The notes: a model not told the origin generated them from the letters alone. DNA of 64,000 bases from an uncultured Actinomycetes bacterium (GCA_964627505.1 CAZVKB010000004.1:3295-67294); one strand, 5' to 3'; counted from the first letter of the stretch, positions 1 to 63,167 are shown. Numbers and translations: made by a program.

Positions 1-481
1 CGACCTCGATCAGATGCTGGCAGCGATCACCGAGGTACGGACGCTGGGCTATCCGGGTGTAGTTCTCGGAGCACTTAGCTACGGCCACATCGTCGAACCC
101 GATTGGCAAGTTCTGCACGTACTTATGTCTGCGTGTCACGGTTTGGAAGTGACGTTTCATCGTGCCTTCGACCATGTGACTCAGCAAGCCGAGGGCATCG
201 GCAGGTTGGCGGACTTAGGCGTGCGGCGGATCCTCACCAGTGGCAAACCAGGCCCCGCGGTGGAACATCTCAGCTGTCTGTCCTCGCTCCTAACATCCGC
301 AGCCAACGCTGGAGTTGGACTCATGGCAGGCGGCGGCATCTCCAGTTCGAATGCCCATAAATTGCTCGCAATCGGCATCAATGAGATCCATGCCTCCGCT
401 GGCGGTTCCCAAGGTGCCCAGGACTTATTCGAGGTGCGTAATCTCGCCGGACAGCTGGCTCGGTGGCCGTCAGGATCTTGA
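1..481 (+). CDS. cutC: Copper homeostasis protein CutC family, C-terminal part; the 5' end lies outside the window
   Basis: The reading frame is open to the window edge. TFHRAFD and GVRRILTSG motifs and the C-terminal GGGI...EIHAS segment are typical of CutC TIM-barrel proteins. Confidence 0.8.
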   Translation, partial: DLDQMLAAITEVRTLGYPGVVLGALSYGHIVEPDWQVLHVLMSACHGLEVTFHRAFDHVTQQAEGIGRLADLGVRRILTSGKPGPAVEHLSCLSSLLTSAANAGVGLMAGGGISSSNAHKLLAIGINEIHASAGGSQGAQDLFEVRNLAGQLARWPSGS

Positions 482-503
482 TCACCACCGCTGACACCCC
501 GCT

Positions 504-1253
504 TCACCCCGGTCGCGGATAACACAGTCCCGACGGGCTAACTGCTAGCCCCGGCGTCTGCATGTCCCATGTGAGCTCGCCCATGTGAGCCCGCAGAAGT
601 GCCGGCAACACTTGCGCTGTCGCGCGGGCATCGCCGAGAGCCGTGTGCGCATCGTTGAGATTCACATGCGCCCAGGAGCACAGGGTGGACAGTCGATAGT
701 CCGGACACGTCACCACCTGCCGAGCCAGCCGCAGCGTGTCGATCGCCGGCAACGTGGGCACATCCCGCTCCACGCCCGCAAACGCCGCAGTGAGGAAACC
801 CGCCTCAAACCTGGCGTTATGAGCAACCACCACTGCCCCGCCTAACCAACACAGGATGTCGTCCACCACCTCCCGAAACCGCGGTGCATGCGCCACCATG
901 TCATTGGTGATTCGGTGGATGCCGACGGCTCCAGTGTCTCGACCGCCACCTGGATTGATCAGGGTGGACCACTCGGCTTGCGGTTGCCCGTCGGCACCCA
1001 CCCGAACGATGCCGACTTCCACAATCCGATGGCCCTGCGCTGGGCTCAGCCCAGTCGTCTCCAGGTCCACCACCGCATACCCATCCCGGCCGCAGGGCGT
1101 ACCAGCGAAGGCCCCCGGGTAGCTGAAAAGCGGTCTCGGCGTGGCCTTCACAGCCGCCAACGTTACGCCGGGTTCGCGCGTTGCAGCCGACTGCCTCGGC
1201 GCCGCTGGCCAGAATCGGCGCCAACCGGCGCCCACCTGCTTGGACATTGCCAA
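504..1253 (-). CDS. DEDDh-type 3'-5' exonuclease (DnaQ/epsilon-like) with an N-terminal extension of about 55 aa
   Basis: ExoI motif VVDLETTGL, ExoII VAHNARFEAGFL and ExoIII HTALGDARATAQV. The start codon is uncertain within the first ~50 codons. Confidence 0.8.
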   Translation of the reverse strand: MAMSKQVGAGWRRFWPAAPRQSAATREPGVTLAAVKATPRPLFSYPGAFAGTPCGRDGYAVVDLETTGLSPAQGHRIVEVGIVRVGADGQPQAEWSTLINPGGGRDTGAVGIHRITNDMVAHAPRFREVVDDILCWLGGAVVVAHNARFEAGFLTAAFAGVERDVPTLPAIDTLRLARQVVTCPDYRLSTLCSWAHVNLNDAHTALGDARATAQVLPALLRAHMGELTWDMQTPGLAVSPSGLCYPRPG

Positions 1254-1335
1254 CCTCCCCCTCTGGACACTTTGTCCCGATAGCAGCCATCGTGATGGCC
1301 ACCTCCGACAAAAAACCGCCGGAAGGGTCGAGTGG

Positions 1336-3075
1336 TCAAGCCGAGGTGCGCTGCTGGGCCAAGCCTTCCTGTGTTGCCAGAATCAGCAAGCGGTCCCGAG
1401 CCCTGGTGACTCCTACGCTGATCAGATCGTGATAGGCCCCGCGGCTAGATGCATTGAGATCCGTGAGGATCACCGCCGGTGCCTCCAACCCCTTGAACGA
1501 GTGAATCGTGGAGTAACGCACCCGGCCTTTCTGTTTTGGCCCACCTCGGCGGTAATCCACCAGCAGCGGGCTCAGCCAATCGTCAGAGCACAACGCCGCA
1601 GCAGACTTCCGATAGCGACTCAGCACCACAATGTCTGACAACTCGAAACCGTCGGCCACCAAAGTCCGCACTGCCGCAACCAGCAACTCAGCCTGCTCTT
1701 CCGGCGTGGTGTAGGTGTGCAGCACCGGCTGATAACCGTCTGCGGGCCGACGATACGAGGCATACATATGATCCACCCCGCACAATTCGGCCGCCTCTTC
1801 GGCAATTCCAGGGACATTGCGGCAGTTGGTGGTCAGTCGAAATGTTGCGAATGAACCTGCCCGGTCGAGTAGTTCCAGACCAGCGGCTCGGGCATACAGC
1901 GCCTGGTCATCAAAGTCCCCGAAGAACAGCGCCCGGCCTGAACGCAGCCCGCCGTGCACCAGATAGTCGACCACCTCCAGCCAATTCTCCCGGCAGAGGT
2001 CCTGCACCTCGTCCACGATCAGGTAGTCAGCCGGGGCTAGCGCCGACGAACCGGCTTCCCCCACTTCGGACGCGGCTGCGGTATCCCGCGCGGCTACCAG
2101 CACTTCCCAAGCTGACACCGGCAGGGACACCTCCCAAAACTCGCGATCAGTGTCCTGACTCGCCGGCAATCCGGTGATGTCGAGCATGAGCTGCGGCAAC
2201 GTGTGCACGCTGAGACCGTCGATGTCTTCGGCCTGCTCGGACAGGTAACGGGCCAATGCGTGGTTGAAACACAGCAATACACCTCGTTTCCCCCGCGCAG
2301 CCTCCCGCCTCGCCGCTTCCAATGCCAGGAAGGTCTTTCCACACCCGGGCGGACCGGTCACCAATACCTGCTGATTGCCACTCAACCCATCGAGCACCAT
2401 CACCTGCTCGTCCAGCAAACGCGCGAGTTCTTGTTCGCGAGCGGCACGAATATCCTTTGGACTTGGGGCCACGTGGAGATGCGGCTTCAATCTGGCCGCA
2501 ATGGCGTTGGTTTGCTCCAGACTCGGTCCGATCACAGCAGGCCACTTATGACCCTTGTCGGCCCGGTTTGCACGTCCGGCGGCAAGCAAACGAATGATCG
2601 CCCCGGGCACGTCTGCTTCCAGATCCGTGTTGTCCAACACCTGCCAACCAAACCATTCCACACTCCCGGGCAACTCTCGCTTGGCGGGCGCGTGGGTGAA
2701 CCACACCCCGGCCTCGAAATGCACCGCGGTCAGGCCCATCCGCGAGTTGAGATACTCCCCGATCGCAAACTTTGCGTTATCCGCTTGGGCAAAAGGACTG
2801 TTCGAGGTAGGGGGCCGACGCCCCAACCGCCACATGCCGTTGCTGTCGCGTGACACCGAACGATGCGACTTCACTTCGATCACGGCAACACCGTGCCCCG
2901 GCACCACCACTACGAAGTCGGCCTCACCGCGCTGTTGGCGAGGATGATCGGCCAGCCGCAACGAGTGCAATGCGATCCAATCATCGCAATCCGGGCTCGC
3001 AGCCAAGGCACGGAACAGTGCCTGCTCGCCCGGTGGGGCATCGTCGCTGATGATGGGCGGAATCATCACCACCAT
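1336..3075 (-). CDS. NERD-domain (PD-(D/E)xK nuclease-like) protein fused to a UvrD-like SF1 helicase / AAA ATPase
   Basis: N-terminal GEADFVVV...VAVIEVK nuclease-like motif. Walker A GPPGCGKT, Walker B LIVDEVQDL, and a C-terminal STIHSFKGLEAPAVIL UvrD_C-like motif. I chose the ATG at 3075 because GGAGG lies 7 nt upstream; the ORF stays open to 3168. Confidence 0.8.
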   Translation of the reverse strand: MVVMIPPIISDDAPPGEQALFRALAASPDCDDWIALHSLRLADHPRQQRGEADFVVVVPGHGVAVIEVKSHRSVSRDSNGMWRLGRRPPTSNSPFAQADNAKFAIGEYLNSRMGLTAVHFEAGVWFTHAPAKRELPGSVEWFGWQVLDNTDLEADVPGAIIRLLAAGRANRADKGHKWPAVIGPSLEQTNAIAARLKPHLHVAPSPKDIRAAREQELARLLDEQVMVLDGLSGNQQVLVTGPPGCGKTFLALEAARREAARGKRGVLLCFNHALARYLSEQAEDIDGLSVHTLPQLMLDITGLPASQDTDREFWEVSLPVSAWEVLVAARDTAAASEVGEAGSSALAPADYLIVDEVQDLCRENWLEVVDYLVHGGLRSGRALFFGDFDDQALYARAAGLELLDRAGSFATFRLTTNCRNVPGIAEEAAELCGVDHMYASYRRPADGYQPVLHTYTTPEEQAELLVAAVRTLVADGFELSDIVVLSRYRKSAAALCSDDWLSPLLVDYRRGGPKQKGRVRYSTIHSFKGLEAPAVILTDLNASSRGAYHDLISVGVTRARDRLLILATQEGLAQQRTSA

Positions 3076-3387
3076 GGGTCGGCCTCCGCTCGCGTTTGCA
3101 ATAACGGTGCAGAGTCCCGGTCGCCAGGCCCCCGCCATCGGTCCGCATACCTGGCCATCCACCGTCACTGTTGACGTTGCCCGCTGCCCTGCCCGTCCAT
3201 CCTGCCGTACCGAGTGACCCAGCGATGACTTTTCCCTTGTTGATCATGAACTGCCGAGAAATGGCAGCGCATACCCGATGACGCCAACCGCGCTGGCCTT
3301 ACATTCCGCTTACAAAAAGTGCAGACGGACTCCACATCGCCCCGACACGTTGGAAACAGACACAGAATCCAGTGATTGGGGCGCCAC

Positions 3388-4803
3388 ATGAGTGTGACCA
3401 CGTTTACCCAGCCATCAGCCCCGCCGAACGTCACCCCCGCAGGGTCGGTGGCGGCGCGCAGCGGACCGACCAGGCCCAAAACCCGTCATCGGCTCTCAGC
3501 CACGGATGTCGCTGGGGTCATTGCCGGTGTACTCGGTGGCCTCATCCTCGGCTCGGGTTGGGTGCTAAGTGCACAGAACTGGAACACACCCGGCGGTCCG
3601 CTGACGGTCCTCGGATCGCTCACTGCCCTGCTCGGCACCTACCTCTGCCTACTTCTGATCGTCATCGTGGCCCGGGTGCCGTGGCTGGAACACCGCATCG
3701 GCCAAGACCGTCTGATCGCACTGCACCGTCGAATTGCGCCTTGGGCTATCGGGCTGATCACCGTGCATGTGCTGGCCACCACGTGGGGATATGCGCAGGC
3801 CGCTGGTATCGGGGTGTGGCGACAACTGGTCGAACTCGTCACTGGATACGCATGGATGGTGCCTGCGAGTGTGGCCTTGGTGGCCATGCTGTTGCTGAGT
3901 TTGATCAGCGTGCGTGCGGTACGGCGACATCTGAAGTATGAAACATGGTGGGTGGCACATCTGTACTTCTATCTGGCGGTGGCATTGGCCTTCGGCCACC
4001 AACTGAGCGCGGGTTCGATCTTTCCCGGTCAGCCGTGGGCCCGCGCAGGGTGGATCGCACTCTACGTGGGTGTCGCCGGGCTGGTGCTGGGAGCGCGGGT
4101 TGTCCTGCCGCTGGTCCGGAGTTGGCGTTATTCCTACCGCGTCGCCGAAGTTGTCACCGAATACCCGGGTGTCGTGGATGTGACGATCACAGGACGCCAT
4201 CTGGAGCGGCTCCCCGTGTGCGGCGGGCAGTTCTTCGAGTGGCGCTTCCTCACCCGCCAGTGGTGGTGGCAGGCACACCCCTACTCACTGTCCCGCGGAC
4301 CAGATGGCCAGACACTGCGCATCACCGTGAAGGCGCTCGGCGATCAGAGTTCGGCGATCGACCGCCTGCGTCCCGGCACCAGAGTGATCGCCGAGGGGCC
4401 CTACGGAATCTTCACCGCTGCCCACCGCACTGGCGGTGCCAGCGTGGTGGCGGTGGCCGCTGGTGTAGGTGTGGCACCGGTGAAATCGCTGTTGGACACG
4501 CTGGGTCCAGCCGATGACGTCAGCCTCATCTACCGGGTACCGGACCTCGCACCGGAATCCATTGCACTGCGGGCCGAGGTTGAGGCGATGGTGGCCAAAA
4601 ATCATTGGCACCTGGTGTATGTACCTGGCGCACCCGAGGCCTGCACCATGACCTCAGACATGCTGGTGCACCTGGCACCGAGCGCAACTGCTGCGGACAT
4701 CTTCGTCTGTGGGCCCCAGCAGTTCACGGCCACTGTGGTGTCGGCGGCCCGGGGCCTCGGTATCCCGCCCGAACGGATTCATCATGAACTCTTCACATTC
4801 TGA
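3388..4803 (+). CDS. Ferric-reductase-like transmembrane protein with a C-terminal FAD/NAD(P)-binding ferredoxin-reductase module
   Basis: Multi-TM N-terminus with paired His (HRRIAPW...TVHV; HLYFY...FGH). HPYSLS is an FAD-binding RxYS-type motif. GVGVAP is an NAD(P)-binding motif. An alternative TTG start lies at 3376. Confidence 0.8.
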   Translation: MSVTTFTQPSAPPNVTPAGSVAARSGPTRPKTRHRLSATDVAGVIAGVLGGLILGSGWVLSAQNWNTPGGPLTVLGSLTALLGTYLCLLLIVIVARVPWLEHRIGQDRLIALHRRIAPWAIGLITVHVLATTWGYAQAAGIGVWRQLVELVTGYAWMVPASVALVAMLLLSLISVRAVRRHLKYETWWVAHLYFYLAVALAFGHQLSAGSIFPGQPWARAGWIALYVGVAGLVLGARVVLPLVRSWRYSYRVAEVVTEYPGVVDVTITGRHLERLPVCGGQFFEWRFLTRQWWWQAHPYSLSRGPDGQTLRITVKALGDQSSAIDRLRPGTRVIAEGPYGIFTAAHRTGGASVVAVAAGVGVAPVKSLLDTLGPADDVSLIYRVPDLAPESIALRAEVEAMVAKNHWHLVYVPGAPEACTMTSDMLVHLAPSATAADIFVCGPQQFTATVVSAARGLGIPPERIHHELFTF

Positions 4804-4839
4804 GCCGTTCATCCCATCAGCGAAGAAAGGACGCCAATC

Positions 4840-5316
4840 ATGAAGCGCGCAATCATCGTCACGGCCGGCACGGTCGTGGGAGTAGGGGCTGCGCTTGCCT
4901 ACACTCCGCGGCCGCCCGCACTAGCCCTGCCCAGTGCGAGTGTGGTGCCGCCGATTTCCCCGCAAGCACCGAGCGCTCCGACCAGCCCGGTAACAGATGG
5001 CGCAGCTTCGGCGGTTGACACTGCTCTGCCCACCGCACCCAGCGGCGTGTTCACCGGAGACGTTGTGAGTACCCGATTCGGGGATATCCAGGTGCAGATA
5101 GCTGTTGCCCAAGGTGTGGTGCAGGATGCCGTGGCGGTGACCTACCCGGCGCTAGACGCCAAGTCGGCCGCCATTTCGGCGGCAGCGGTGCCGACCCTGC
5201 GCAGTGAGACGCTCGCTGCCCAATCCGCCGAGATCGCCACCGTCAGTGGTGCGAGCTATACCTCAGACGGGTGGGTCACCTCGCTGCAATCGGCGCTCGT
5301 CCAAGCAGGTCTGTGA
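4840..5316 (+). CDS. Exported FMN-binding domain protein with an N-terminal membrane anchor
   Basis: N-terminal TM/signal segment, an Ala/Pro/Ser linker, and a C-terminal FMN_bind-like domain. The flavinylation-type motif TVSGASYTS is encoded at 5245-5256. Confidence 0.75.
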   Translation: MKRAIIVTAGTVVGVGAALAYTPRPPALALPSASVVPPISPQAPSAPTSPVTDGAASAVDTALPTAPSGVFTGDVVSTRFGDIQVQIAVAQGVVQDAVAVTYPALDAKSAAISAAAVPTLRSETLAAQSAEIATVSGASYTSDGWVTSLQSALVQAGL

Positions 5317-5317
5317 C

Positions 5318-6100
5318 ATGACCGCGGTCCGACGTGCCAGCAGTGGGAGGTGGGAACGCATCGTGCATTGCGAACCCGTGTGGGGCACCGTGGTGAGCAT
5401 TGAGATCCGGGGGGCACACATGGCACAACAGTCGGCAGCGCAAGCCCTCGCGGCGGCGGCCGCCTGCGCCCATGAGGTGGATGCCCATTTCTCCACCTTT
5501 CGTGCTGACAGCGTCGTTTCCGCGCTGCGCACAGGCACCCTCACCTTGGCCGATACGCCACCAGCAGTGCAGGAAGTCTGGCGAGCGTGTGAATATACGA
5601 AATGGCTCACCCGCGGCGCCTTCGACTCGTGGGCGACACCAGGTGGCTTCGATCCGTCCGGTTTGGTCAAGGGTTGGGCCGCCGATCGCATGGCCGAATT
5701 AGTGGTGGACGCCGGGTTCCCAAATGTGACAGTCAACGCAGCCGGAGATGTGACGTGTCGAGGTGAACAGGCGCCCGGGGTGCCCTGGATCGTGGGCATT
5801 CGCGATCCGCGCTCTGCCGGTGACATCGTGCGCACCGTGGGTGTTTCAGCGGCCGCCGTGGCCACGTCCGGAAACTACGAACGTGGCGAGCACATCATCA
5901 ATCCCCACCATTACGACGCTGTCGCGAAACTCGACTCTGCGACCGTGATCGGGCCCGACGGCGCACTGGCTGACGCCTTGGCAACTGCTCTCGTCATTGT
6001 CGGCAATGCGGGGGTCGAGTTCTTCACCGATTTGCCCGGCTGGTCTGGATATCTGATCGCCGGCACGGATGTCAGTTACTTCGGCCCGGCGTTTGCCTGA
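5318..6100 (+). CDS. apbE: FAD:protein FMN transferase (ApbE family)
   Basis: ApbE-like motifs (GWAAD, ATSGNYERG, ADALATAL). The ATG sits 2 nt after the upstream stop. The longer ORF from 5204 overlaps the previous gene and was trimmed. Confidence 0.85.
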   Translation: MTAVRRASSGRWERIVHCEPVWGTVVSIEIRGAHMAQQSAAQALAAAAACAHEVDAHFSTFRADSVVSALRTGTLTLADTPPAVQEVWRACEYTKWLTRGAFDSWATPGGFDPSGLVKGWAADRMAELVVDAGFPNVTVNAAGDVTCRGEQAPGVPWIVGIRDPRSAGDIVRTVGVSAAAVATSGNYERGEHIINPHHYDAVAKLDSATVIGPDGALADALATALVIVGNAGVEFFTDLPGWSGYLIAGTDVSYFGPAFA

Positions 6101-6138
6101 CTACTTTCACCTCGATCGACGCACCCGTGCCGACAGTG

Positions 6139-7848
6139 TCACTTCGTACCATCAGCCCAGGTCAACAGCGCTTCCTGGACAGTGGTGACATACCCGTCCG
6201 GCCCGATCAGGTCGCTGATCCCGAAGTAGTCCAGCGTGGCACGGGCGTCGTCGGGGATTCGGGCGATCACAAACTTGGCCCCGGCGGCGCCGACCAGTGC
6301 AATCACCTTGCGCAGGGATTCCTCAGATGTCCAGTCCACGGTCTGTATCTCGGAGGCATCCAGCACAAAGACCGTCAAGGGCTGTGGCGGCGCCGACAGC
6401 AAGATCCGCACGTCATCGACTAGTCGGGAAGCATTGGCGAAATACAAATTCGCAGAGAAGTGGTAAACGATCAGCCCGGGAGCGGTCTGGATTCCAGGTT
6501 CCACCGACCGTTCCAGACGGTGTTCCTCAGCATTCAGTCCCAGCACGAAATTGTGGGGTCGAGAGGTGTGCGCGAGGTGCACCACGATTGAGGCCACGAT
6601 CGCCCACAGAATGCCAGCCCCGACTCCCACGAAAGCCACAATCACAGCCGTGCTCAGCGCTACCCAGAACTCATTCTTGTGAGGCAAGTGCATGAGCATC
6701 CGCAGCGTGCTCAGTTTGATCAGATGAATCGCAATCACGAACACGACTGCGGCCAGCGCCGACTCCGGCAGGTAATCGAACACCCCGGTGAGAAACATCA
6801 GCACCAGCGCCGTGAGCCCGGCTAGCACCAACATCGCCAGTTGCGAGTGGGCCCCGGACTTGTCGGCGATGGCGGTCTTCGTGGGTGACCCGTTGACGAC
6901 GAAGGTGGAGCCGAAACCAGCCGCCAAGTTGGCGCCACCCAATCCGATGAGATCGCGATTGGGCTTGTTGGGATCATCGTGGGCGATGGCGAACGCGCTC
7001 GATGTCGACACACTCTGCGCGATCACCACCAGCATCAGGACCAGCGCTGTCGGGCTCAGTGCGACCATGTCTGCCCAGGACACTGATGGCACCGTGATGG
7101 CTGGTAACCCCGCCGGCAGGGCACCGACTGTGGCTACTCCGTAATCTGTCTTCAGGTGCAGTAATCTCGCTGCAATCATGCTGCCGACCACCGCGATCAG
7201 CGGGCCCGGTACTCGGGGGGCGAACTTGCCCAACAACAAGATTGTGGCCACCACCGCCGCCGCAACAACCAGATCGGCGACGTTGCTCTCAGGTACATGA
7301 CGCGCCGTGTCCAGCAGTTTCTCGATGGTGGTGTCGCCGCTGGCAGAGACCCCCAACATGCCGTGCAGTTGTCCGAAGGCGATTTGAATCCCCACCCCGG
7401 TGAGAAACCCGGCGAGCACGGATCGGGACATGAAGTTGGACAGGAAGCCCAAGCGCAAGATTCCCGATCCCAGCAACAGCAGCCCCGTAATAATCGCCAA
7501 CACACACGTCAGCGCAAAAAAACGAGCCGGGTCGCCTGCGGCCAAAAGTCCAACCGCGCCCGCGCTGATAGCAGCGGTCGCCGAGTCGGCCCCCACCACC
7601 AGTCGTCGGGACGCCGCGATGACGGCAAACAGCAGCACGGGCAACAGGCAGGTGTACAGGCCTGTCTCGGCCGGCATGCCTGCGATCTTGGCGTATCCCA
7701 AGCCCTCCGGAATAGCCACCGCGGCCAGCGTGGCACCGGCGATCAGATCGGGGGTCAGCCAACGCCGCCGATAGGGCAACACCCCGCCCAACAGTCCATA
7801 GCGGGTGAGAAAACCGGTGCGCGGTGGTGAGACTGCGGGTGCATCCAT
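6139..7848 (-). CDS. SulP family inorganic anion transporter with a C-terminal STAS domain
   Basis: Polytopic membrane protein with a SulP-type N-terminus (LTRYGLLGG...DLIAG) and a STAS-like C-terminus. I used the ATG at 7848, which is preceded by GGGAGAG; the ORF stays open to 7956. Confidence 0.85.
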   Translation of the reverse strand: MDAPAVSPPRTGFLTRYGLLGGVLPYRRRWLTPDLIAGATLAAVAIPEGLGYAKIAGMPAETGLYTCLLPVLLFAVIAASRRLVVGADSATAAISAGAVGLLAAGDPARFFALTCVLAIITGLLLLGSGILRLGFLSNFMSRSVLAGFLTGVGIQIAFGQLHGMLGVSASGDTTIEKLLDTARHVPESNVADLVVAAAVVATILLLGKFAPRVPGPLIAVVGSMIAARLLHLKTDYGVATVGALPAGLPAITVPSVSWADMVALSPTALVLMLVVIAQSVSTSSAFAIAHDDPNKPNRDLIGLGGANLAAGFGSTFVVNGSPTKTAIADKSGAHSQLAMLVLAGLTALVLMFLTGVFDYLPESALAAVVFVIAIHLIKLSTLRMLMHLPHKNEFWVALSTAVIVAFVGVGAGILWAIVASIVVHLAHTSRPHNFVLGLNAEEHRLERSVEPGIQTAPGLIVYHFSANLYFANASRLVDDVRILLSAPPQPLTVFVLDASEIQTVDWTSEESLRKVIALVGAAGAKFVIARIPDDARATLDYFGISDLIGPDGYVTTVQEALLTWADGTK

Positions 7849-58406: not shown

Positions 58407-59399
58407 ATGCGCGCATGGCTCCTCGACGCCCCCGGCTCACAACTTCGTTTGGGACATCTCCCAGACCCGGCGCCGGGTCCCGGACAGTGGCTGGTTCGCG
58501 TGCGCTTCTGCGGCTTGAATCCAGTGGACTGGAAACTCGCTGCCAACGGACATCCCGATTGGGTCTGGCCGCAAGTGTTGGGGTTGGACGTCGTCGGCGA
58601 GGTGGTGGGCACCGGGGTCGATGCGCCGCCGCCCGCTGGGCTCATCGCCGCCCACCTCGACCTTGCTCAGCGTGGCGGTCTGGCGGAATACGTGACCCTC
58701 ACCCCGGGCGTGACGGCCGCACTCCCCGCCGGGCTGGATCCCTGGACGGCCGCCACCATGCCGTGCCCCGGGCTGACAGCTTGGCAAGCGGTCAGTCGGA
58801 TCGCGGACATCCTCGGGCGAGCCGGCCATAGTCGCCGGGCGTTGGTGCTCGGCGGGGGTGGCCCGGTGGGTTCCTTGGCTGTACAACTGCTGGTGCAGCA
58901 AGGTGCGCAGGTGGCTGCGACCTGCTCTGCCACCGATCGTGCGCGCGTGCACGACTTGGGCGCAATCTGGACTGCGGATTACCACAACCCGCAGGCACTG
59001 CCGGAACTTGTCACCGCAGCCGGCGGGCCGTTCGCCTGCGTCGTGAATACGGCGACGCCACAAGCAGCGGAGGATGCTCTGCCGCTTGTGGAATTCACAG
59101 GTGCGCTCGCGTCCATCACCGGCCGACCTCATGCGTCTGAGGTGCCGGAGTTCACTCTGGCACCGACATTGGTGGAAGTAGCGCTGGGGGCTATTCACTC
59201 CCATGGAACTCATGACCAGCAAGCCGCTTTCGGCGATGCCCTGCACCGACTGCTCGACGCTGTTGACCAGGGGCGGCTCACTGCGCCGCAAGCGACGGTG
59301 GTGCCAATGACCGACGTTGCTGACACTCTGACCAAAATGTCGCACAGCACCGGCAGCAAGTATGTCGTGGAAGTCGCCGCCAGTTCGAAGGAGTTTTGA
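58407..59399 (+). CDS. Zinc-type alcohol dehydrogenase / quinone oxidoreductase (MDR family)
   Basis: N-terminal GQWLVRVRFCGLNPVDWK and a Rossmann-fold motif VLGGGGPVGSLAVQL. Confidence 0.8.
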   Translation: MRAWLLDAPGSQLRLGHLPDPAPGPGQWLVRVRFCGLNPVDWKLAANGHPDWVWPQVLGLDVVGEVVGTGVDAPPPAGLIAAHLDLAQRGGLAEYVTLTPGVTAALPAGLDPWTAATMPCPGLTAWQAVSRIADILGRAGHSRRALVLGGGGPVGSLAVQLLVQQGAQVAATCSATDRARVHDLGAIWTADYHNPQALPELVTAAGGPFACVVNTATPQAAEDALPLVEFTGALASITGRPHASEVPEFTLAPTLVEVALGAIHSHGTHDQQAAFGDALHRLLDAVDQGRLTAPQATVVPMTDVADTLTKMSHSTGSKYVVEVAASSKEF

Positions 59400-59403
59400 T
59401 GAT
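59350..59403 (+). repeat. Left copy of a 54-bp imperfect direct repeat (51/54 identical to 62759-62812)
   Basis: Base-by-base alignment by hand. It covers the last ~14 codons and stop of the MDR gene plus an overlapping ATG. Confidence 0.85.
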
Positions 59404-59520
59404 GGTGGCGTTGGCTGGCCGGAATTGGCTCACGACCTTCGAGAACCGAGGTGGCTGCCAGAGCAGGTATCACGGGACATCTAGCTCATCTGGGCTGTCG
59501 GATGTGGCGTCCATGATCGA

Positions 59521-60666
59521 TCAATCGCGGCCAAGGATGGCTTCCTGGTATCGATCGTCGGTCCTGGCGACCACCGTGGGCCATCCGAAATCCGGTTGGT
59601 TCGCCATATTGCGATTGGTCACGGTCGTCCGCAGTTCCTGCTCAGACACCAGTCGGGCGATTGCCGCAGCGAGACCCTCGTCATCGTTGGCGAGTAGACC
59701 TTCCCGACCGTGACGCACGAACTCCGATATCCCGCTGTCGTGCAATGCCACAACGGGGAGTCCGAATGTCCGCGCTTCCAGGGCTGCGATCCCAAACGAC
59801 TCAAGGCGTGCGGGCGCCACATATATATCTGAGAGGGAGTAATAGGCACGTATCTCAGCGTGTGACTTCCAGCCCACGCACCGAACCCAACCCATTTTCC
59901 TGTGCACAAGGATCTTTTCGATTGCACCCCTGTCTGGACCATCTCCAACGATGATGGCGCGCAGTTGGATCTCAGCTGGGATTCGGGACCGAACTTCACC
60001 CAGAATGTCGATCAACGCCTCGCTGCGTTTCCGCACTGCCAACCGCCCTACGGAGATGATTGTCACCTCATTAGGTGGCCGCACCTTGCGCACCTCACAC
60101 TCGCGTTCAGTTGATCGCCAAAATGGGATGTCGATGCCATTAGACAGGACTGACACTTCCGCTCGACCGCCCAAGGCGTGTCTGAGTGGGCGCGCCGCTA
60201 CTTCGCTGACCGCGGTCCACACCACAGGCCACTTCCGCCAACAGAACAATGCGTCGGCCATCGCGAAGATGCGCGACCAGTTGGCCCACACCGAATGCAC
60301 TGTGACCACCACCGGCAGACCAGCCTTCACTGCAGTTCGCAACGCCGGCCAAGCGAAGGGGGACACTAATCCGGCATGAACGTGAACTACGTCGGTATCT
60401 GCCACCAGCTCTGACCGAAGTTGTTTTCCGATGCGATGAGTGACAGGCAGCTCGTAGGGCAAGTTGGTGACAAGGCGGTGGATTGGCACAGCACCGCTGG
60501 TGTAATCGTCAGCAGTTGTTGCCGGTAGGCCTCGCGTACCTGTGGCTGTCACGACTCGAGGCTGGTGTCCGATCGCAAGTTGTGCACGGGCTAATCCCTG
60601 CACCTGTAACTCGATTCCACCCGTCCTGGGCAGATAGCAGTCACTCACATGAGCGACGCGCAGCAT
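59521..60666 (-). CDS. GT4-family (GT-B, retaining) glycosyltransferase
   Basis: N-terminal HVSDCYLPRTGGIE and the C-terminal EX7E motif ESFGIAALEA. Locally lower G+C than the flanks. Confidence 0.85.
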   Translation of the reverse strand: MLRVAHVSDCYLPRTGGIELQVQGLARAQLAIGHQPRVVTATGTRGLPATTADDYTSGAVPIHRLVTNLPYELPVTHRIGKQLRSELVADTDVVHVHAGLVSPFAWPALRTAVKAGLPVVVTVHSVWANWSRIFAMADALFCWRKWPVVWTAVSEVAARPLRHALGGRAEVSVLSNGIDIPFWRSTERECEVRKVRPPNEVTIISVGRLAVRKRSEALIDILGEVRSRIPAEIQLRAIIVGDGPDRGAIEKILVHRKMGWVRCVGWKSHAEIRAYYSLSDIYVAPARLESFGIAALEARTFGLPVVALHDSGISEFVRHGREGLLANDDEGLAAAIARLVSEQELRTTVTNRNMANQPDFGWPTVVARTDDRYQEAILGRD

Positions 60667-60718
60667 GCTTTCTCCTCACTGCTCACCCCTCGGGCTACGT
60701 GTTTGGAAGACTAGGCCT

Positions 60719-61564
60719 GTGCCCTCCACCGTAGTGTTCCTCCATGCTCATCCCGACGATGAGGCTCTCATGACTGGCGGAACGATGGCACGGCTCGCTG
60801 CCGAGGGGCATCGGGTGGTGCTGATAACTGCGACAGACGGCGCAGCCGGCCTCACTGCTTCCACGACGATCAGCACCCGAACGTTGGCATCCGTTCGCCG
60901 TGAAGAATTGCAGAGATCGATAACCGTCCTCGGGGTAGCGAGACTCGTCCTGCTCGGATACGCCGACTCGGGTCTCGACGGCAACGGCACACCGTCGACA
61001 GCGGGGCTGGATCGCCAATCAGACGTGCCCTTCACTCACGTGGCGACCGAAGCCGCTGCGTCCAAGGTTGCTGCGATTCTCGAGGAAGAGACTGCCGATG
61101 TGCTTGTGGGCTACGACGCGGCGGGTGGGTACGGTCATCCAGACCATAAGCAGGTTCATCGCGTCGCCCGGCTTGCCGCACAGATGACGCCGGCGGTGAT
61201 GCTGCTGGAGGCAACTCTCCCCCGCGAACCTCTGGCGCGGGCAGTGACAGGCGCCCATCACCTGCGTCGCATCATCCCTGCGCTGGGTGGACTTGATCCA
61301 GCGACGTGGTCGGTCGCGCACACACCACGAGCAGACATCACCCACCGTGTCAACGTCCGACGCTTCGCTGATGTCAAACGAGCGGCCATCGCTGCACACG
61401 CATCCCAGCAGGCCGCCGACCGGGATGTGCGTACGTTGGAGGTGCTGCTGCGGTTGCCCCGACCCGCATTTCGGCTACTGCTGGGGTGGGAATGGTACGT
61501 CGGACCGCGGTCGGCACGCACCCGGTACGTCACCCATCCGCTTGCCAAGACGGCGAAAAGTTGA
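60719..61564 (+). CDS. PIG-L / LmbE family N-acetylglucosaminyl deacetylase
   Basis: Zinc-site motifs AHPDDE and GHPDH. GTG at 60719 was chosen to leave a divergent promoter gap; the ORF stays open to 60665. Confidence 0.8.
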   Translation: MPSTVVFLHAHPDDEALMTGGTMARLAAEGHRVVLITATDGAAGLTASTTISTRTLASVRREELQRSITVLGVARLVLLGYADSGLDGNGTPSTAGLDRQSDVPFTHVATEAAASKVAAILEEETADVLVGYDAAGGYGHPDHKQVHRVARLAAQMTPAVMLLEATLPREPLARAVTGAHHLRRIIPALGGLDPATWSVAHTPRADITHRVNVRRFADVKRAAIAAHASQQAADRDVRTLEVLLRLPRPAFRLLLGWEWYVGPRSARTRYVTHPLAKTAKS

Positions 61565-61568
61565 ACAA

Positions 61569-62666
61569 GTGACTCCACCCGAAGACGTCACCGGAGCCCA
61601 GAGCGTGTCGATGTGGCGCCCAACTGGCGGTCAAGTCGCATTGTCTTTGGGGGCCTTGGCATTGGGCGCAGCCCTGATCGCGTTTGCGCTGCCACAGGCG
61701 GCGGGCACAGATTGGTCGCAGGCGATCGCCGCACTGGCGAGCCTTCGCCCGCTGGAGATTGCTCTCATAACACTCTTATGGGCCGTCGGACTTTGGCTGT
61801 ACACCTTCGTCTACACAGGCAGTCTGCCCGGACTGCGACATTCCCAATCACTCGCACTAAATCTCACCGGTTCCCTGGTCTCGAATCTGCTCCCCTTCGG
61901 TGGCGCCGCCGGGGTGGCCAATACGTATGCCCTGACCTTCTCGTGGGGTTTCTCAGGTATCGCGACATCGCTGATGGTTCTGGTGAGTGGTCTGGCAAAT
62001 CTGCTCATGCGACTCGTACTTGTGCTGATCGGTCTGGTGGCATTGCAGATGAGCGAGGCCACCCTGTCGGCCGCGGGCGGTCGCATCACGCTGGGGACGG
62101 TCGTTGCCACGGCGTTGGTCACCGTCGCGGTCGTGGGGATGCTCGCCAATTCCCGCTTCGCCGGCGGCATCGGTTCACTTGGGGACCTGGTACTTCGCGC
62201 CTTGCGGCGGATGGGGCATCGCGCTGAACCACGCACTTCACTGCACGACTCTGCCATCGACATGCAGAAACGTGCGAAACCACTGCTGGCGAAGGGCTGG
62301 CTTCCGGTGGCCTTCGGGATGACTTCCTACTACGCAACCGAAACGCTGTTTTTCGGCATAGCGCTACACGCCCTGGGGGCACCCCTGCCCTGGAACGAAG
62401 TCATCGCGGCCTTTGCGTTATCCCGGGTGTTGACAGCCGCCACCGTGACTCCTTCTGGTGTCGGCATCTCGGAAGTGGGCACCGCGGCCGCCCTCGTACT
62501 GTTCGGCACACCACCGGCCATCGCAGCAGCAGCGGTGCTGGTGTTGGGGTTCTACACGTACCTGATAGAGATTCCAGTTGGTTTTGTCGGCTACATATGG
62601 GTGGCATTGATGCGACGGTGGCGGGTTCAAGGCAGCACTCCACCCGAGATTGCTCCGTCGCCCTAG
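61569..62666 (+). CDS. Flippase-like membrane protein (lysylphosphatidylglycerol synthase TM region / UPF0104 family)
   Basis: About 8 TM segments with the family-typical SLVSNLLPFGGAAGVANTY. GTG at 61569 lies 4 nt after the PIG-L stop; an alternative ATG lies at 61611. Confidence 0.7.
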   Translation: MTPPEDVTGAQSVSMWRPTGGQVALSLGALALGAALIAFALPQAAGTDWSQAIAALASLRPLEIALITLLWAVGLWLYTFVYTGSLPGLRHSQSLALNLTGSLVSNLLPFGGAAGVANTYALTFSWGFSGIATSLMVLVSGLANLLMRLVLVLIGLVALQMSEATLSAAGGRITLGTVVATALVTVAVVGMLANSRFAGGIGSLGDLVLRALRRMGHRAEPRTSLHDSAIDMQKRAKPLLAKGWLPVAFGMTSYYATETLFFGIALHALGAPLPWNEVIAAFALSRVLTAATVTPSGVGISEVGTAAALVLFGTPPAIAAAAVLVLGFYTYLIEIPVGFVGYIWVALMRRWRVQGSTPPEIAPSP

Positions 62667-62758
62667 AAGTAGTGGACTGTGAAGGGATAAGGCGATCCAG
62701 CTGTTCTGCCCACGCGATCAACTCGTCCGCGTGGGCGCGAATCAGGTGCTCGACAGCC

Positions 62759-62812
62759 CCGGCAGCCAGTATGTTGTGGAAGTCACCGCCAGTTCGAAGG
62801 AGTTTTGATGAT
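62759..62812 (+). repeat. Right copy of the 54-bp imperfect direct repeat
   Basis: It carries a C-terminal stub of an MDR-like frame (SQYVVEVTASSKEF-stop) and the true ATG of the NifX-like gene. Confidence 0.85.
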
Positions 62813-63167
62813 CGTTGCAGTGCCGGTAGATGAGCACGGACATGTCGGCCACTCGTGGGGGCGGGCGCATACTGTCGCCATTGCGCGGGTGACCGGTGAC
62901 AGCGTCACGGATTGGCACGAGTACCCCGTGGGCTGGGATGCACTCCACGATCAAGGCTCAGAAGGGGCGCATCACGCTCGGGTCGTGAAGTTCTTACGCG
63001 AACACGAGGTGTCCGGTGTGGCCTTGTCACACGTCGGGCCAGGAATGCAGCGCATGATGGCAACCATGGGCATTTACCTGGTTACCGGAGCCAGCGGCGA
63101 CGCAACAGAGGCCGTGATCGCATTGGCGCGTGACGCTGAAACCGAGCCTGAGTATCCCAACACATAA
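62808..63167 (+). CDS. NifB/NifX-family (dinitrogenase FeMo-cofactor-binding-like) small protein
   Basis: IVAVPVDEHGHVGHSWGRAHTVAI...GVALSHVGPGM...GIYLV pattern of the Nitro_FeMo-Co domain. Confidence 0.6.
   Translation: MIVAVPVDEHGHVGHSWGRAHTVAIARVTGDSVTDWHEYPVGWDALHDQGSEGAHHARVVKFLREHEVSGVALSHVGPGMQRMMATMGIYLVTGASGDATEAVIALARDAETEPEYPNT

Follow-up and report, generated by a model that had tools for sequence, protein, structure and literature searches.

The stretch analysed here (the window) comprises 64,000 nucleotides of one strand of a metagenome-assembled contig from an uncultured Actinomycetes bacterium (GCA_964627505.1, CAZVKB010000004.1:3295-67294). All coordinates refer to the whole window. 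Close to its end an MDR gene and a NifX-like gene, both intact, stand on either side of a three-gene module, and the module is bracketed by an imperfect direct repeat. The features of the locus are listed below.

58407..59399, plus strand: MDR gene (zinc-type dehydrogenase/quinone-reductase-like), intact; Pfam ADH_N and ADH_zinc_N
59340..59413, plus strand: left repeat copy; functional MDR tail, TGA at 59397-59399, 5-codon start stub of a NifX-like gene
59414..62749, no strand assigned: interval between the copies (referred to as the insert); 3,336 nt, three genes, GC content 0.614
59521..60666, minus strand: GT4 glycosyltransferase; Pfam Glyco_transf_4 and Glycos_transf_1
60719..61564, plus strand: PIG-L/LmbE-type de-N-acetylase; Pfam PIG-L (3e-29)
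61611..62666, plus strand: UPF0104 / LPG_synthase_TM membrane protein (MprF flippase-domain family); Pfam PF03706 (1.9e-20)
62750..62822, plus strand: right repeat copy; non-functional MDR-tail stub, ribosome-binding site and ATG of the NifX-like gene
62808..63167, plus strand: NifX-like gene, intact; Pfam PF02579 (Nitro_FeMo-Co)

An ungapped alignment of 59350-59403 with 62759-62812 has matches at 51 of 54 positions, and the 27 nt that end both 54-nt copies in the window are identical (CCGCCAGTTCGAAGGAGTTTTGATGAT). This had been claimed in a first-pass annotation made from the sequence alone, and was borne out by alignment. In a local alignment the repeat reaches about 74 nt, 59340-59413 being paired with 62750-62822 across a single 1-nt indel; the score is 103, the maximum among shuffled sequences being 25. 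Upstream of about 59330 and 62745 the similarity between the copies is at background level. A 25-nt tail of the repeat occurs exactly twice in the window, even allowing three mismatches, and was not found in any of 100 shuffles. Apart from a weak 41-nt pair (76%), the junction repeat is the sole long direct repeat in the 64 kb. It is not a genome-wide intergenic element: there are two copies in the window and two in each locus of the same species (see below), both at the junction and none at other loci, a distribution that lacks the dispersal of repetitive extragenic palindromes (REP) or miniature inverted-repeat transposable elements (MITE).

The repeat unit consists of the last ~19 codons of MDR, the TGA, an overlapping ATG and the first five NifX-like codons, and the stop/start overlap reads TGATG. 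Each copy has one functional half and one stub, as the first reading of the locus had proposed. The left copy holds the last ~19 codons and the stop of the intact MDR gene, followed by a NifX-like stub that reads ATG ATG GTG GCG TTG in the window and M-M-V-A-V in other strains. The right copy starts the intact NifX-like gene; its MDR stub is frameshifted through a 1-nt deletion, and an in-frame TGA at 62680-62682 closes the frame upstream. The ribosome-binding site of the NifX-like gene (GAAGGAG, 6 nt before the ATG) sits within the MDR tail, and duplication of the junction therefore let both genes stay intact. Because both copies hold both halves, a direct junction between MDR and the NifX-like gene must formerly have existed.

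No integrase or transposase domain was found between the copies in a Pfam scan, which returned the GT4, PIG-L and LPG_synthase_TM genes only, in agreement with the first-pass annotation. The non-coding ends of the insert measure 107 nt (left) and 83 nt (right), and so leave no space for a decayed recombinase; no remnants of MDR or NifX-like genes were detected in them. No significant inverted repeat pairing the ends of the insert was found. The window contains no tRNA, the 58-64 kb interval no Rfam family, and promoter and terminator scans gave no signal above chance. Neither Flavodoxin_2 remnants nor the sequences that flank the module in another lineage (L023) were found in the window. Microhomologies are possible at the joints (CCGG on one side, TG on the other); no weight can be put on matches this short.

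At least 24 metagenomic contigs encode the exact NifX-like protein. The conspecific set used here consists of the ten distinct places returned (L003-L012), with about 98.3% nucleotide identity to the window. All ten are filled, with the same layout and the same repeat spacing of 3,409 nt. The divergence of the window from these contigs is distributed as follows.

Upstream: 1.95%
MDR: 1.75%
Left repeat copy: 12.2% (9/74)
Insert: 1.15%
Right repeat copy: 1.4%
Downstream: 1.02%

The insert has diverged like its flanks, and an insertion would therefore predate the split of the sampled strains. The module is old and is fixed in these strains.

The left copy is a ten-fold divergence outlier, and of the nine positions that differ there, six have in the window the same base as the right copy. 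The right copy is invariant in the ten conspecific contigs except for position 62807 (G/C). Left and right copies share 46 of 54 positions in the ten contigs, 51 in the window and 53 in L032, a further contig of 695 nt. The 27-nt perfect identity is strain-specific and there is no conserved core; the identical tail, which might be read as an att-like core, is polymorphic in the population and best explained by later gene conversion. The MDR tails occur as ..VIAGENEF, ..VAASSKEF and ..VTASSKEF, and two MDR alleles (P0213 and P0216) have identical bodies and different tails. The patch concerned is the following.

59366..59390, plus strand: putative gene-conversion tract in the left copy; matches the right copy in the window and in L032, not in the 10 other strains

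The patch alters the MDR C-terminus from ..VIAGENEF to ..V(A/T)ASSKEF. Compared with the right copy, L032 has no differences in the central 45 nt and seven in the outer 30 nt (Fisher p = 0.001). The pattern of shared bases is best explained by gene conversion from right to left in one haplotype lineage, after the copies had drifted to ~83-85% identity.

L032, the tail of which is hybrid (..SKYVVEVTASSKEF), was also considered as an excision product. This was rejected, as the contig continues into the left spacer and represents a filled left junction. At 395-410 of this contig a deletion of ~32 nt between two TTG microhomologies in MDR splits the gene call; coverage is 0.95x, and the deletion is probably an assembly or sequencing artefact. 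Four more single-nucleotide polymorphisms lie upstream of the left repeat at 59237-59260 (LLDAV versus LLNVV) and are linked to the tail alleles. When the tail is included, the MDR 3' end falls into two haplotypes and one recombinant, P0216. Diversity at the MDR 3' end is several-fold above that of the rest of the locus.

We favour the following history for the locus. MDR and the NifX-like gene would once have been coupled in translation, the stop of the one and the start of the other sharing the sequence TGATG. A segment of 3.3 kb with the GT4/PIG-L/UPF0104 module would have inserted into this junction, with duplication of about 75 bp of target sequence; the left copy would have kept the C-terminus and stop of MDR, the right copy the ribosome-binding site and start of the NifX-like gene, and both genes would have survived. 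The most likely route is a recombinase-independent insertion with target duplication, whether illegitimate, by a template switch or by repair of a staggered break. It is favoured because a recombinase, terminal inverted repeats and an attP-like partner are all lacking and because the duplication is too long for a transposase. The copies would later have drifted apart to ~85% identity, and in the lineage of the window the right copy would have overwritten ~25 nt of the left by gene conversion. The 27-nt stretch of identity would stem from this conversion, as would the altered last seven residues of MDR. Taken as a whole, this account seems to us to stand slightly better than even chances of being correct.

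Comparison with other lineages bears on the interval between the two genes. In the closest of them MDR is 71-73% and the NifX-like protein 77-80% identical to those of the window. The order in L013-L016 is TldD-PmbA-MDR, 45 nt, Flavodoxin_2 (222 residues), 81 nt, NifX-like; L030 shows Flavodoxin_2-NifX-like. MDR and the NifX-like gene are thus syntenic while the DNA between them varies, which makes the interval a place where gene content changes. The first-pass annotation had stated that carriage of the three genes by all close relatives would speak against an insertion. At the species level all of them do carry these genes; the sister lineages have Flavodoxin_2 instead. A repeat around the sister-lineage flavodoxin gene was considered and rejected, as only an 8-mer, not significant, was present. 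More distant NifX-like homologues have unrelated neighbours, and because none of them adjoins an MDR gene they are of no use as an outgroup.

An empty site was sought with a pattern of an MDR-specific anchor, 60-85 nt and a NifX-specific anchor; a second pattern described the degenerate repeat core. The predicted empty junction reads MDR ...AAAATG, one repeat copy and GTGCCGGTAGATG.... Exact-pattern scans of the JGI metagenomes for the empty site and the repeat core gave no hits, and are uninformative since the filled locus was not found there either. When the GTDB representative genomes were scanned with the MDR protein, only hits at 30% identity were confirmed among the matches listed.

Several points weigh against the insertion account. 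No empty MDR/NifX-like junction was seen in any genome examined; consequently we infer the insertion and its direction, and the first-pass proposal of an insertion that duplicated its target is carried by the duplicated junction, the variable interval in sister lineages and the occurrence of the module as a self-contained unit elsewhere. The Flavodoxin_2 lineages are nearer to each other than to this species, and the ancestor shared with this species may thus have had either a direct junction or a flavodoxin gene between MDR and the NifX-like gene. We know of no well-established recombinase-free mechanism in bacteria that produces a target duplication of 75 bp, and a length of ~75 bp fits the att identity segments of actinomycete integrative elements, which span ~45-110 bp, better. 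Outgroup MDR tails are too diverged to polarise the tail polymorphism, and it is possible that a patch was instead imported into the other haplotype, the seven differences being clustered in 15 nt.

Composition gives little help to the insertion account. The bulk GC content of the insert (0.614) lies at the 12.5th percentile of same-size windows (range 0.60-0.67); it is no outlier and not atypical. The counts on which the first-pass annotation based an AT-richer cassette are correct (29/60 at 59821-59880, 45/60 at 58621-58680), and it is mainly the unusually high GC content of a stretch just upstream of the insert that produces this contrast. What stands of the claim is a low GC content at third codon positions (GC3), mainly in the GT4 gene, which at 0.626 is the lowest of the module, followed by PIG-L (0.667) and LPG_synthase_TM (0.696). 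The NifX-like gene is also low (0.675), MDR is on the low side (0.71), and the immediate neighbours reach 0.77-0.80. The reference set of other genes has a GC3 of ~0.74, but was picked by a GC3-GC2 filter that favours high GC3 and even selected an antisense open reading frame inside PIG-L, and the z-scores are rough. The lower GC3 of the module gives mild support for a separate history and is no proof of it.

Actinomycete integrative elements such as pSAM2 and SLP1 are islands at gene 3' ends flanked by att-type direct repeats. The present locus is similar in its imperfect direct repeats of tens of bases, a usual length for Actinomycetota, in its foreign-looking cargo and in the reconstituted 3' end of the target gene. 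The copies could thus be attL and attR of a tyrosine-recombinase element, or of a cis-mobilisable islet served by an integrase elsewhere, which targeted the MDR 3' end, carried an imitation MDR tail and NifX head and so reconstituted both genes. Imperfect direct repeats of 54-75 nt, within the range of att identity segments and placed exactly at a gene 3' end, are what such an event would leave; the differences at their outer edges around a similar centre are as expected of attL/attR hybrids, and the low GC3 of the cargo agrees. Unlike pSAM2 and SLP1, however, the insert has no integrase beside the repeats and no excisionase, replication, transfer or other backbone gene, its spacers (107 + 83 nt) are too small for a decayed recombinase, and a gene other than a tRNA is targeted. 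Every conspecific contig has the module, which is as old as its flanks, the central identity of the repeats varies between strains with no conserved core, and no empty attB was seen in close relatives, of which sampling was limited. Searches for the insert or the repeat in plasmids, phages and viral contigs, which the first-pass annotation had suggested, gave no match, and no attP-bearing element was found elsewhere; copies of the module in other lineages have no flanking repeats or repeat-like sequence. The sole match in the plasmid collection, 112 nt in an 11.85-Mb record of Nonomuraea gerenzanensis, is irrelevant. On balance we consider site-specific integration rather unlikely. It is very improbable that the ~75-nt repeats are working recombination sites, from which a recombinase-less cassette excises as a circle to re-enter an empty MDR/NifX junction; the route would be RecA-dependent recombination between the copies (46-53/54 identical) or an integrase acting in trans. 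If true, an amino-glycolipid (membrane-charge) module would be spreading through the Actinomycetota on a mobilisable cassette of a new kind. A transposon or insertion sequence would likewise leave a direct target duplication on either side of the inserted DNA. The usual transposon target-site duplication is 2-14 bp, of short fixed length, whereas ~74 nt are duplicated here and neither a transposase nor terminal inverted repeats are present; the length of ~75 bp therefore excludes ordinary transposition.

The two stubs could also be what remains of a segmental duplication, in which the MDR-NifX pair was doubled around the module (or the module landed between tandem copies) and later deletions trimmed the inner NifX copy to 5 codons and that of MDR to ~20. 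The stubs are fragments of genes and have the order and orientation expected of such remnants, the right one has the pseudogene-like features of a frameshifting 1-nt deletion and a preceding in-frame stop, and the left edge of the right copy shows a gradual loss of similarity. Such a history is unlikely: it needs at least three events against one insertion with duplication, no further MDR or NifX-like remnants are found in the spacers or beyond ~59330 / 62745, and no intermediate form was present in any contig examined. It is quite unlikely that MDR and the NifX-like gene had the module between them ancestrally, with a flavodoxin gene swapped in by the sister clade and the repeat arising independently (e.g. 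by local conversion or duplication). With two clades only, the polarity of the content difference is not fixed, and the nearest GT4 homologues (69-72%) have diverged about as much as the flanking orthologues (71-80%), which is compatible with vertical descent in the wider group. This would, however, leave unexplained the NifX head after MDR and the MDR tail before the NifX-like gene, both of which require a former direct junction, and the nearest homologues of the module lie in unrelated contexts. As the window derives from a metagenome-assembled contig, chance similarity, a genome-wide intergenic repeat or an assembly artefact also had to be considered. These are effectively refuted by shuffle controls without matches, by a copy number of two in the window and of exactly two, with unchanged spacing, in each conspecific locus, and by the same structure in at least 10 independent assemblies from different samples. 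The insertion footprint proposed at first pass is thus partly supported, as an old one with no sign of mobility and with weak compositional contrast. Events of this kind, in which a gene-module indel is bordered by duplicated target sequence, are known.

The three genes of the insert recur together elsewhere. The GT4 gene is convergent with MDR and divergent from PIG-L, and its homologues at 57-72% identity always adjoin PIG-L and LPG_synthase_TM genes. The architecture is constant in L023-L029, with GT4 divergent from PIG-L and LPG_synthase_TM following, and four other actinobacterial contexts with unrelated neighbours were found, among them those listed below.

L023-L026: DUF2157, hydrolase, BaxI
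L027: RpiA, Peptidase_S13
L028-L029: NaeI restriction-modification system, helicases

The trio is a conserved functional module that occupies differing places across Actinomycetota. The best NCBIfam matches of the GT4 protein are sub-threshold: BshA at 94.8 bits (cut-off 273.7) and MshA at 76 bits (cut-off 462). Against the model of the GlcNAc-PG synthase GpgS (N-acetylglucosaminyl-phosphatidylglycerol synthase, NF053787) it scores 51 bits (cut-off 480), well short of orthology. The PIG-L protein reaches 113 bits with MshB (cut-off 224) and is also below the cut-off of Mca, so that none of the equivalog cut-offs for mycothiol or bacillithiol synthesis (MshA/MshB, BshA/BshB) is reached. The UPF0104 gene has an alternative start (GTG 61569) and matched no NCBIfam family.

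The PIG-L open reading frame is open from 60665. Its probable start is GTG 60719, and public gene calls use ATG 60770. A start at ATG 60770 would cut off the conserved VVFLHAHPDDE motif. The start at GTG 60719 gives a protein of 281 residues, similar to its homologues (284-285 residues), and a divergent GT4/PIG-L intergenic region of 52 nt.

A GT4 enzyme together with a PIG-L-family enzyme is familiar from two pathways. The synthesis of glycosylphosphatidylinositol (GPI) anchors starts with the GT4 protein PIG-A, the deacetylase PIG-L and flipping of the product; in mycothiol synthesis a GT4 N-acetylglucosamine (GlcNAc) transferase (MshA) is followed by a PIG-L-family de-N-acetylase (MshB). 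The best NCBIfam matches (BshA/MshA, MshB/Mca) point in the same direction, but all scores are far below the equivalog cut-offs. Because a partner of lipid-flippase type is present, a membrane-lipid substrate is favoured over a soluble thiol. To judge from analogy with characterised systems, the module probably attaches GlcNAc to a membrane lipid, removes the acetyl group and flips the product. Its nearest parallels are three-gene units of a glycosyltransferase, a de-N-acetylase and an MprF-flippase-domain (UPF0104/COG0392) protein. The gpgSDF genes of Pseudomonas aeruginosa make glucosaminyl-phosphatidylglycerol, GpgS being a GT4 protein and GpgF a COG0392/UPF0104 protein (PMC12713373). The hexSDF genes of Clostridioides difficile make an aminohexosyl glycolipid and raise resistance to daptomycin and bacitracin (PMC10128005). 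A general role as phospholipid translocators of prokaryotes has been proposed for UPF0104 domains, which in Actinobacteria are often linked to glycosyltransferases (bioRxiv 10.1101/2022.03.11.483950). The present module differs from gpgSDF and hexSDF in its deacetylase, which is of PIG-L/LmbE type and not of COG3233 or polysaccharide-deacetylase type, and in its GT4 gene, which is transcribed divergently and not within one operon. It may work like these systems but is a member of neither family.

The MDR protein scores under every NCBIfam cut-off. In the window it is identical to P0212 (P0001 cluster), and an exact look-up of it as a gene product returned no record. A proline run at 58623 shows a 3-nt indel polymorphism among strains (330 or 331 residues). 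A further MDR orthologue (73%; L031, 374-1440) has a different context on both sides, and is homologous to L013 from 16 nt ahead of its start codon to ~62 nt past the stop. In L013 a CRISPR-Cas cluster (1-6924; Cas3-HD, GSU0053, GSU0054 and a Cas4-Cas1 fusion) lies directly upstream of TldD, at a position where the present species has SerB and a His_Phos_1 gene. As the DNA upstream of TldD differs, the conserved block is only TldD-PmbA-MDR-(X)-NifX-like. On the other side, L003-L012 enter a strain-variable defence region from locus coordinate ~14196, ~4 kb past the end of the window and after a CitMHS/ArsB-type transporter. L003 has an OLD-family nuclease and a type I restriction-modification system there; L005 has an OLD-like protein, AbiEii, an AAA_21 protein and an insertion sequence (HTH_Tnp_1/rve); in L004 such defence genes are absent and housekeeping genes continue.

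As a lead to a mobile element the locus is weak, being old, present in every sampled strain and without machinery of its own. It is a clean natural example of an operon junction split by incoming DNA in which both genes were kept through duplication of the junction. It is also an example of duplicated copies that keep exchanging sequence and so rewrite the C-terminus of a protein in some strains. More use can be made of the cargo, a by-product of the analysis: an uncharacterised trio of GT4, PIG-L and UPF0104 genes, conserved across uncultured Actinomycetota. By analogy the trio looks like a counterpart of the gpgSDF/hexSDF amino-glycolipid systems, through which membrane charge is altered along with resistance to daptomycin and bacitracin. 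If it is such a counterpart, a new glucosamine-bearing lipid would be predicted in these bacteria.

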